64,000 bases of DNA from assembly GCF_056712565.1 (NCBI RefSeq), contig NZ_CM160072.1; one strand, written 5' to 3'. Position 1 is the first letter of the stretch. Each line of letters begins with the position of its first letter. Made by a program: the position numbers. Of this stretch, positions 39,001 through 42,000 are shown piece after piece.

Positions 39001-42000
39001 TAAATCGCACACCCACAGCGCCAGCGCATCCAGTACGGATTTGGGGACGAAAAACACATCGTCGTTTGATTACGGAACCAAATCCACGAATAACACCGGG
39101 GCGCATACGCACAGTCTGAGTGGCTCTACGGGGTCTGCCGGTGATCATACTCATGGTAATGGTATTCGTTGGCCAGGAGGCGGCGGTTCTGCGTTAGCAT
39201 TTTATGATGGCGGTGGGTTCACTTATGTCCAGGATTCACAGTATCAAGTAAGCCCGGGGACTTCTTCCCGTAGATCGTATTATCAACGTATTCAGACACA
39301 GTCAGCAGGTGCTCATACCCACTCGCTGTCTGGTACTGCAGCAAGTTCTGGCGCACATGCACATACTGTAGGTATTGGTGCGCATACGCACTCCGTTGCG
39401 ATTGGTTCACATGGACACACCATCACCGTTAACGCTGCTGGTAACGCGGAAAACACCGTCAAAAACATCGCATTTAACTATATTGTGAGGCTTGCATAAT
39501 GGCATTCAGAATGAGTGAACAAGCACGGACCATAAAAATTTATAATCTGCTGGCCGGAACTAATGAATTTATTGGTGAAGGTGACGCATATATTCCGCCT
39601 CATACAGGTCTGCCAGCAAACAGTACCGATATTGCACCACCAGATATTCCTGCTGGCTTTGTGGCTGTTTTCAACAGTGATGAGGCATCGTGGCATCTCG
39701 TTGAAGACCATCGGGGTAAAACGGTTTATGACGTAGCGTCAGGGGACGAGTTATTTATTTCTGAACTCGGTCCGTTACCGGAAAATGTTACCTGGTTATC
39801 GCCGGAAGGGGAGTTTCAGAAGTGGAACGGCACAGCCTGGGTGAAGGATACGGAAGCAGAAAAAATGTTCCGGATCCGGGAGGCGGAAGAAACAAAAAAC
39901 AACCTGATGCAGGTAGCCAGTGAGCATATTGCGCCGCTTCAGGATGCTGCAGATCTGGAAATTGCAACGGAGGAAGAAACCTCATTGCTGGAAGCCTGGA
40001 AAAAGTATCGGGTGTTGCTGAACCGTGTTGATACATCAACTGCACCTGATATTGAGTGGCCTACGAACCCTGTCAGGGAGTAATCATTGGGATTATGCCG
40101 CAGCACGTCTTAAGCAAGAACGTGCTGCGGTTGGATGCTATTTTTTCCCTGAAGCGGAAAACATTACTACAGTACCTTGAACCTTGGTTTTAACATTCTC
40201 GAAATGCTCTGAGAGTATATGTGTTAAGCCTTCTTCGGAATCTTTTGTGTTTGAAAAGATGCCTTTCTGATTGTAAATGCGCATCAGTTTTTGACCGAAG
40301 CTATTGTGCACAACTCCATCGCCAAGAATTGTGGCTCCGTATAGAGTTCCATCGTCAGTTAAGGCCTGCGCCGCATTGCGTATTACACAGCTTTTTGTAG
40401 ATATATTTCCAGGCAGGCAGTGAAGAAGGTAAAACATGGAAATGGAATCAAATTGACCATGTAACGCCGCGGGATAAGGTTCAAAAACATCATGGCTAAT
40501 TTTATGTTTAATTTTTGATTCCCCAGCCCTTGTAGATGCCGCGTTCAGGCTAGCTTCGTTCAAATCCATTAAAGATATCAGACTACTCTCAGGTACGTGA
40601 GTAAGGTAAAACCCAGTTCCAACACCAATATCCAGATGGTTGTTACCTACATGTTCCAGAAAGTGTGGAAGAAGGTGTTCCTTTGTAGGACATCCCCATG
40701 CAAGCCGATTTGATACTCCCAAAACCCACCAGTCATAAAGCTTTAGGGTAAGTGGTGTGTAAATTTTAGCCCCATCATCTGTGTTTTTTTTCATTGATTT
40801 CACCATGTTATAGTTTTATTTGTGAATTAAATCAATTATGGCGATGAATTACAAGGGGTTAAATGCTGCCGCAGCATAGCGATATTGAAATAGCCTGGTA
40901 TGCTTCGATACAGCAGGAGCCGAATGGCTGGAAGACCGTCACCACACAGTTCTACATCCAGGAATTCAGTGAGTATATTGCGCCACTGCAGGATGCTGTA
41001 GATCTGGAAATCGCAACGGAGGAAGAAAGATCGTTGCTGGAGGCATGGAATAAATATCGGGTATTGTTGAATCGTGTTGATACATCAACTGCACCTGATA
41101 TTGAGTGGCCTGCAAATCCTGTCAGGGAGTAATCATTGGGATTATGCCGCAGACACGTCGTATGCAGGAACGTGCTGCGGTTAGTTTGTGAGCTTTCGAT
41201 AGTGGTTGTTATTTTTGCCCTTATTTGTTCCGGAGGCCATGGTTCAATGGTCCGTCTGCCCCCTGTGGTGATGTCAGCAAAATCAGCCACTGCGCGAACC
41301 ACAATAGCCCGGGAAGATGCTGAAGATCACCAGGTAAAGCTATCAGCGCAGAAACTGGAAGAACTGCTCGCATCAATGGTTAAGGATGAGGTTGATCGCA
41401 ATGATGGGATTTATTGACGTCAGCGAGAGCAGAAGGAAGAACTGAATAACCTGAATGATTTACGCTCAATCAGAGCGATGATGATTGGCAGTAATTAGCG
41501 GTCAATTTCGGTTTTTTTGGCTGTGCGCTCCCCGCCCAGCATTGCGCGTCAATTAGCCCCAAAAAAACGAAAAAGTTACAATCAAGTAAAAAATTCCTTC
41601 TGCAAAACTAAAAAAGATTTCAATAAAATCAGACAGTTAAAAACATAAAAAAAAGGTACAAAAAAACATCTCAAAGTCTTGTTTTTTGCTTCAAATACAA
41701 TTGGTTATTGTGTTTTTTGAAACCTACCAGTCTGGTACATGGATATTGATACCACTGCCAATTATAAACTGGGCGGAGCACAGCAACACGATAGCGTACG
41801 CCTCGATCCGTGGGTGTTTATGTTCTCAGCAGGATATCGTTTTTAATTCCGCACAAAAATGACCCCGTAATTACGGGGTCAATAAGGACATGGTATAAAG
41901 GGTATTATTTCTTCGCTTCTACGCCATCAGTTTCAGAGCGAATTAAGAATTTCTCAGTTGTTTGCGGAATATGCTGAATTAGCCAGTCGGCCATGTGCTT

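Follow-up and report, generated by a model that had tools for sequence, protein, structure and literature searches.

The window (the whole stretch of DNA analyzed here, 64,000 nucleotides) contains the right end of a prophage and the host genes beyond it. The last phage genes annotated by PGAP are a tail fiber gene (36392-39499), tfa (39499-40083) and, on the opposite strand, a gene for a SAM-dependent methyltransferase (40138-40806). These are followed by two remnants on the plus strand. One (40956-41132) is a fragment of a tail fiber assembly gene (tfa), a pseudogene without its N-terminus and part of a degenerate right-end cargo; an open reading frame at 40863-41132 matched the Pfam family Caudo_TAP (E = 6e-25). 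The other (41229-41498) is a DUF4376 pseudogene with an internal stop codon; no other phage coding remnant lies between it and the attachment region. Pfam gave no match for the open reading frame at 41136-41414, and the PGAP annotation of the right end of the prophage contains no nleG. The right-end cargo is partly pseudogenized.

Beyond these remnants is a stretch of non-coding DNA (41499-41727) with a GC content of 33%, compared to 51% for the whole window. It contains eight runs of six or more A/T bases in 229 bp, or 35 per kb versus 1.3 per kb window-wide. As many runs were found in just one of 2,551 sliding windows of the same size. The GC content of the part next to the host DNA (41597-41727) is 25%. 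The first-pass annotation had described tail fiber genes giving way to AT-rich, homopolymer-rich non-coding DNA, and this order of features is what we found. It had set the limits of the non-coding stretch at 41460-41760; the stretch exists, but the coding remnants reach 41498 and host DNA begins at 41728.

On the host side, PGAP annotates a plus-strand pseudogene, 'OmpW family outer membrane protein, missing N-terminus' (41721-41846). This is the displaced original 3' end of ompW, an untranslated remnant of 41 codons and the stop codon, and it is identical at 122 of 126 positions to the 3' end of ompW in the prophage-free strain JA0257. There is an in-frame stop codon (41718-41720) just before the remnant, and the host DNA proper within it is the last 119 bp of ompW (41728-41846). 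The next feature is an intrinsic terminator on the minus strand (41850-41881), identified in a terminator scan. It consists of a hairpin (TGACCCCGTAATTACGGGGTCA, minus strand 41881-41860) and then a T run (41850-41859). The hairpin is directly downstream of yciE (41905-42411, minus strand; PGAP annotation and ORF list), the intact host gene nearest to the prophage on its right side. The hairpin is also present in prophage-free strains, and its earlier assignment as the yciE terminator was correct. In JA0257, ompW and yciE are convergent neighbors and this hairpin alone occupies the gap between them.

We found that the boundary between phage and host DNA is inside ompW. We used window 41100-42450 as a megablast query against complete E. 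coli genomes (n=5,426), and 5,274 of the 5,426 genomes matched. The query was 100% identical to the record of E. coli ATCC 11775 (NZ_CP033092.2, minus strand). Record coordinates given below refer to this genome, where record base = 2725754 - w and w is the window base. In prophage-free genomes the alignment began only at query base 629, which is window 41728, and the alignments of JA0257, K-12 and other unoccupied sites agree with a breakpoint at this position. The breakpoint is therefore inside ompW and not in the spacer. DNA to the left of 41728 is the P arm of the phage attachment site (attP) and DNA from 41728 rightward is host. The prophage boundary is 41727|41728, and the integration site is within the ompW coding sequence, at codon 174 of 212, rather than in the ompW/yciE spacer. 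An attR-type junction had been predicted somewhere within 41420-41900, with alignment to a prophage-free genome as the way to check it, and both the prediction and the check are borne out by the breakpoint. The placement of the prophage on the yciE side of the ompW/yciE interval was wrong, as the att core corresponds to nucleotides 521-548 (codons 174-183) of ompW itself. Additional host DNA between tfa and yciE had been named as evidence against that placement, and the 119-bp end of ompW lies there.

The other end of the prophage is outside the window, as had been expected for the integrase end. The source genome has a full-length ompW there (record 2730988-2731626), with int (record 2729812-2730942) and xis directly after it. 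The left end of the prophage is 5.35 kb beyond the start of the window, with int approximately 4-5 kb to the left of window base 1. The search for a matching direct repeat, also suggested earlier, located a copy of the core at record 2731079-2731106, in direct orientation, adjoining int and xis and 47,080 bp from the attR copy. The prophage is thus 47,080 bp long, of which 41.7 kb is inside the window. It had been thought that the att core could not be set without the left end; with the left end taken from the source genome, we set it at 28 bp. The core, CAGTCTGGTACATGGATATTGATACCAC (41728-41755, plus strand), is common to attR, attL, attB and attP, and lies within a longer imperfect duplication of 121 bp. 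The attR copy of this duplication (41728-41848, plus strand) is identical to the attL copy at 93 of 121 positions. In alignments, attL is host DNA up to the common block and then diverges, and attR is phage DNA up to the same block and then host. The ends therefore have the att pattern of B-left plus P'-right (attL) and P-left plus B'-right (attR).

A record deposited as a free phage ('Escherichia phage 204576', CP025907.1) contains the contiguous attP: tail fiber remnants, the P arm, the core, a substitute ompW end, and int. The P arm of this record does not differ from window 41480-41727, and the record carries the same right-end pseudogenes and the same core as the prophage in the window. 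The integrase (Int) of the window prophage has a lambda Arm-DNA-binding domain (PF09003, E = 7e-22) and a tyrosine recombinase domain (PF00589, E = 1e-16), and Xis matches the lambda Exc family (PF07825). A lambda-like prophage integrated in ompW, with 121-bp attL/R sequences, has been described in STEC and EPEC (PPompW; Nakamura et al. 2021, PLoS Pathog, PMC8112680). Members of the PPompW family were defined by an integrase more than 90% identical and by an ompW split by the insertion (PMC8112680). Here, Int is identical at 376 of 376 residues, ompW is split, and the 121-bp duplication is present at both ends. Based on these results we conclude, with a probability of roughly 0.93, that 41499-41848 is the attR (P-O-B') of a 47.1-kb lambda-like prophage of the PPompW family that was inserted into the 3' part of ompW by a lambda-type tyrosine integrase.

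The AT-rich stretch has two parts. The left part (41499-41596) is a phage-specific non-coding spacer that is identical in phage 204576 and unrelated in two other phages with this attachment site, PPompW_132418 and P-EibA. The right part (41597-41727, plus strand) is a conserved, A-tract-rich attP P arm of 131 bp that is common to the right ends of all three: the window prophage, PPompW_132418 and P-EibA. These right ends are otherwise different and can be aligned only from approximately 41597. Similarly, in O157 and other lysogens the match to the window begins at 41588-41600.

The conserved P arm contains candidate sites for recombination proteins. A 13-bp sequence at its left edge, CTTCTGCAAAACT (41597-41609, plus strand), is a candidate arm-type Int-binding site (P site), based on its match to repeats in the P' arm and on the lambda Arm-DNA-binding domain of Int. 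The 9-mer CTGCAAAAC within this repeat family (yCTCTGCAAAACy) is present once in the 64-kb window, and the P' arm, as seen in attP and attL, has three direct-order copies, at +125, +136 and +149, directly after the stop codon of the substitute ompW end. The copies are thus distributed 1 + 3 over the P and P' arms, and the candidate CTGCAAAAC arm site is kept in PPompW and P-EibA. From this arrangement we infer that CTGCAAAAC marks the arm-type sites of Int in both arms. The P' repeats are followed by a hairpin and T6 that would terminate transcription of the ompW at attL. The P arm also contains an IHF-like sequence, AATCAGACAGTTA (41627-41639, plus strand), with one mismatch to the IHF consensus WATCAANNNNTTR. 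At the homologous position, PPompW and P-EibA have AATCAATCAGTTA, a perfect match to the consensus, and 41627-41639 may act as a site for IHF.

We considered whether the prophage might instead be in the spacer between an intact ompW and yciE, with the AT-rich stretch as part of the junction and a short att core somewhere in 41460-41760. The source genome does have the gene order ompW - prophage - yciE, with a full-length ompW at the left end, and the AT-rich stretch is indeed non-coding. These observations are met by the fragment of ompW between the phage end and yciE and by the prophage-free genomes, which align from a point inside ompW. Furthermore, the ompW at the left end is a hybrid: its last 91 nucleotides, identical to native ompW at 66 of 91 positions, are a substitute end borne by the attP of the free phage. 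The unoccupied-site alignment, the free-phage attP and the ompW comparison together refute the spacer as the insertion site, and we regard it as having almost no chance of being correct. The same free-phage record disposes of the AT-rich stretch as host spacer. The stretch is phage DNA (the attP P arm), because it is contiguous with the core, the P' arm and int in that record.

Could 41499-41727 be DNA that was acquired separately, such as a small island, the remnant of another element, or a promoter or small RNA locus? Its GC content differs from that of both flanks, its left part (41499-41596) is not in the other ompW phages, and it contains a weak promoter-like match (minus strand 41505-41478). 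Against this, the free phage record runs without a break from the tail fiber remnants through this stretch to the core, P' arm and int, and 41597-41727 is kept at exactly the same position in right ends that are otherwise unrelated. An Rfam scan of 40000-43500 with a permissive threshold found nothing within 41420-41900. The predicted fold of 41480-41600 was no better than that of shuffled sequences (z = -0.97), and we do not propose a structured RNA. The number of promoter-like sites in the promoter scan was that expected from shuffled sequence. We consider a separate origin for this DNA very improbable, and take the stretch to be the left portion of attR. The Rfam matches in 40000-43500 were limited to fragments of IS009 and CssrB further to the left, over tfa sequence.

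Differences between host alleles of ompW made it possible to map the crossover within the core. The unoccupied alleles in K-12, M1, APEC37 and A29 match attP at 28 of 28 positions, with G at core position 5 and C at position 20. The B2-type unoccupied allele, as in JA0257, has C at position 5, T at position 20 and T at position 29. The allele at the site in the window is of the B2 type and mismatches the attP core at positions 5 and 20. As a shared block, the core can be written CAGT[G/C]TGGTACATGGATAT[C/T]GATACCAC. In ATCC 11775, the left flank is B2-type to -68, attR is B2-type from position 5, and attL has the phage G and C at positions 5 and 20. This pattern of markers places the exchange between -1 and +5. 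In O104:H4, a different host background, attR is an existing unoccupied allele with C at position 5 and attL has G. A scan of species genomes provided a third case. In E. albertii NBRC 107761 the same P' arm is joined to rlmC rather than ompW, and with E. coli rlmC as proxy for the unoccupied site, only C-CAGT is common to the junction and attP. E. albertii rlmC may therefore have been used as a secondary integration site, as judged with the E. coli proxy.

The segregation of markers in the two host backgrounds, together with the secondary site, points to a crossover in CAGT (41728-41731, plus strand; +/- 1 base), the first four bases of the block and of the published 121-bp att. To the left of this interval is the phage P arm, and from position 5 the sequence is the host B2 allele. 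Crossovers further to the right in the core, in its central block of 14 bp or its last block of 8 bp, predict combinations of attL and attR markers that were not observed, and we rejected these positions. Integrases of the lambda family are expected to have an overlap of 6-8 bp. The 4-bp crossover interval is shorter than this. Either a mismatch at position 5 is tolerated inside the overlap, or the markers were shaped by repair or recombination after integration. Judging from the three cases, a 6-8-bp overlap probably lies within about CAGTGTGG, with the mismatch at position 5 tolerated in B2 hosts. A dyad, CATGT-N9-ACATG, is visible in the sequence of attB.

These features suggest a mechanism like that of lambda. 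The arm-binding domain of Int would be anchored on the single CTGCAAAAC site of the P arm and the three of the P' arm. IHF, plus Xis for excision, would bend the A-tract-rich P arm to give a scaffold as in lambda. Strand exchange would take place in or beside CAGT, the left edge of the 28-bp identity block. Excision would join 41727|41728 to the attL copy again, generating attP and restoring ompW.

The junction might be a fossil, with a defective prophage and an attR that no longer takes part in recombination. Several properties of the prophage fit this notion: the tfa fragment and the DUF4376 pseudogene with its internal stop at the right end, the two core mismatches between attL and attR, and the presence of Qin-like dicB/ydf genes, which are typical of cryptic elements. 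However, int and xis are intact in the ATCC 11775 prophage, and PPompW phages have an int with 100% identity to it. Those phages were assayed by PCR for excised circular forms, and the attP sequence was read from the PCR products (PMC8112680). The same P arm, pseudogenes and core are present in a record deposited as a free phage. The host allele accounts for both mismatches, which are located rightward of the mapped crossover. A defective prophage with an inert attR is, in our estimation, unlikely, though it deserves some weight.

The phage brings a replacement for the part of ompW that it displaces. At attL, the first 520 bp of ompW come from the host and continue into the diverged, phage-borne 3' end. 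The product is 212 amino acids, the same length as native OmpW, and 205 of the 212 residues are identical. As read from its sequence, the ompW beside int is a full-length hybrid of host and phage, not a disrupted gene. The seven changed residues are N185K, L188S, G190V, A191T, Q192T, Q193V and H194K. The native loop is invariant in amino acid sequence among the E. coli alleles examined. The changes probably sit at the tip of the last beta-hairpin, which would be extracellular loop L4. AlphaFold2 run on the hybrid without an alignment gave no usable structure (pLDDT 28.7). Because this model was uninformative, we infer the position of the changes from the published 8-strand topology of the OmpW barrel (PMC2993939). 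We also looked for a native donor of the substitute loop by searching back-translated KYKSGVTTVKD against 100,044 species genomes, and the only match was the E. albertii copy of the phage arm.

In published accounts, OmpW is described as the receptor for colicin S4 and as required for infection by a T4-like Serratia phage. We found no loop-level receptor data in two papers dealing with colicin S4 and with an OmpW-dependent phage. The phage-borne 3' end could be more than a neutral patch, with integration causing a lysogenic conversion that alters a surface receptor. We regard this as a speculative idea with rather low odds. If it is true, integration could give resistance to a colicin or a phage, or superinfection exclusion. 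The replaced OmpW loop and its receptor properties are the only part of this locus that could lead to a new result.

The junction itself is an ordinary attR of a kind that has already been described. The 121-bp duplication here coincides in extent with a feature of the PPompW record LC567822, 'duplication due to insertion of PPompW'. The intE product of PPompW_132418 is the protein to which Int is identical over all 376 residues, and attL is identical too. The genome layout of PPompW is lambda-like, as is that of the prophage here. There are also differences. PPompW has a locus for the effector nleG at its right end, where this prophage has tfa fragments and the SAM-dependent methyltransferase gene. 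To the left of 41597, the sequence next to the PPompW P arm is unrelated to the window. The host here is a B2 strain, with an ompW allele that mismatches the core at two positions. A 21-bp attB-in-prophage site of PPompW had no match in the window with up to 3 mismatches allowed. This site and the locus for type III secretion (T3SS) effectors are frequent in the PPompW family and do not define it.

P-EibA of ECOR-9 (AF151091) shares the conserved P arm, the core and the 3' remnant of ompW at its right end. P-EibA has eib/eaaA cargo, and its record covers the right end only.

The att sites are organized like those of lambda, with an arm-binding and tyrosine recombinase Int, a lambda-type Xis, int and xis beside the P' arm, and BOP' and POB' sites. 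An A/T-rich P arm with an IHF-like site is found in both. However, the two Int proteins have just 36% identity, the sequences of core and arms bear no relation to those of lambda, and the target here is inside a protein-coding gene. The lambda arm motif is present in 2 + 3 copies, compared to 1 + 3 here. Substitute coding sequence (90 bp) intervenes between the core and the P' arm sites, which puts these sites approximately 125-157 bp away from it.

Insertion of phage 21 and e14 into icd is similar to what we describe (cited in PMC3603311). It is also an insertion in the 3' part of a protein-coding gene, with a diverged substitute end, a maintained ORF length, and a gene fragment at the far junction. 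The gene, integrase and core differ, and here the seven changed residues are clustered in one hairpin of an outer membrane protein. ompW is among the most occupied integration hot spots (PMC3603311). The wording of that report suggests that ompW is disrupted by such insertions, whereas the length of the ORF is kept here, as it is for icd and phage 21. The ompW insertion is a textbook case of gene targeting by a phage that brings a replacement 3' end with it.

Junctions of this type are common. Using a 268-nt attL probe, we found the attL junction in 1,728 of the 5,426 complete E. coli genomes (~32%). The right end seen in the window is common to 597 genomes. At this frequency, correct treatment of the junction matters for prophage calling and ompW typing across many genomes. 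The 'OmpW family' pseudogene beside yciE in the window is an integration scar.

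We found that the ompW gene retained in the lysogen is a hybrid of host and phage sequence. The gene lies at attL, outside the window, at 2730988-2731626 of the E. coli ATCC 11775 record NZ_CP033092.2. The hybrid carries seven substitutions, all grouped within residues 185-194, at the tip of the last beta-hairpin of OmpW, which we infer to be loop L4. The amino acids of the native loop did not vary across the unoccupied alleles examined. A review-type paper (PMC3603311) implied that integration disrupts ompW. In contrast, ompW here is not disrupted by integration.

The ompW allele of phylogroup B2 differs from the phage core at two positions and was lysogenised nonetheless. 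Core positions 5, 20 and 29 (numbered from 41728) correspond to window 41732, 41747 and 41756. An attR 80-mer at least 99% identical to that of the window was present in 114 genomes.

The same integrase and P' arm were also found at a different gene. In E. albertii NBRC 107761 (contig NZ_BBMY01000048.1; about 5690-5800 of L016, minus strand), they are joined to rlmC, with no ompW as partner. The P' arm at rlmC includes the substitute end of ompW, and the CTGCAAAAC repeat is present there three times. Comparing this junction with E. coli rlmC, used as a proxy for the unoccupied gene, the only sequence in common was C-CAGT. The junction looks like a secondary-site insertion that disrupted rlmC.

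Phage 204576 (CP025907.1; 31.5 kb) was deposited as a 'complete' phage. Over window 3650-19823 (~16 kb of the prophage), BLAST aligned no segment of 300 bp or longer with this record, and its tail genes were only 86-94% identical to those of the prophage. Phage 204576 is not the same phage; what the two have in common is the right end, together with the att/int module.

The right end carries a gene for a class I SAM-dependent methyltransferase (40138-40806, minus strand), on the strand opposite to tfa, with the intact tfa on one side and duplicated fragments of tfa on the other. This gene, which looks like a moron insertion, is kept in other lysogens sharing this right end (MSB1_8B, O104:H4). 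The Rfam candidate sRNA family IS009 matched at 40886-41089, overlapping a tail-fibre-assembly fragment, with 112.5 bits (slightly below the gathering score of 117). A second, partial copy (40000-40040) overlaps the intact tfa at its end. The IS009 family was probably built from prophage tfa sequence.

The early region of the prophage (NZ_CP033092.2 2724848-2729521), which lies to the left of where the window starts, contains a short LexA-family repressor open reading frame (112 aa). Also present there are Qin/Rac-like genes: ydfA, ydfB, ydfC, dicB, ydfD, a large exonuclease and a YdaT-family toxin.
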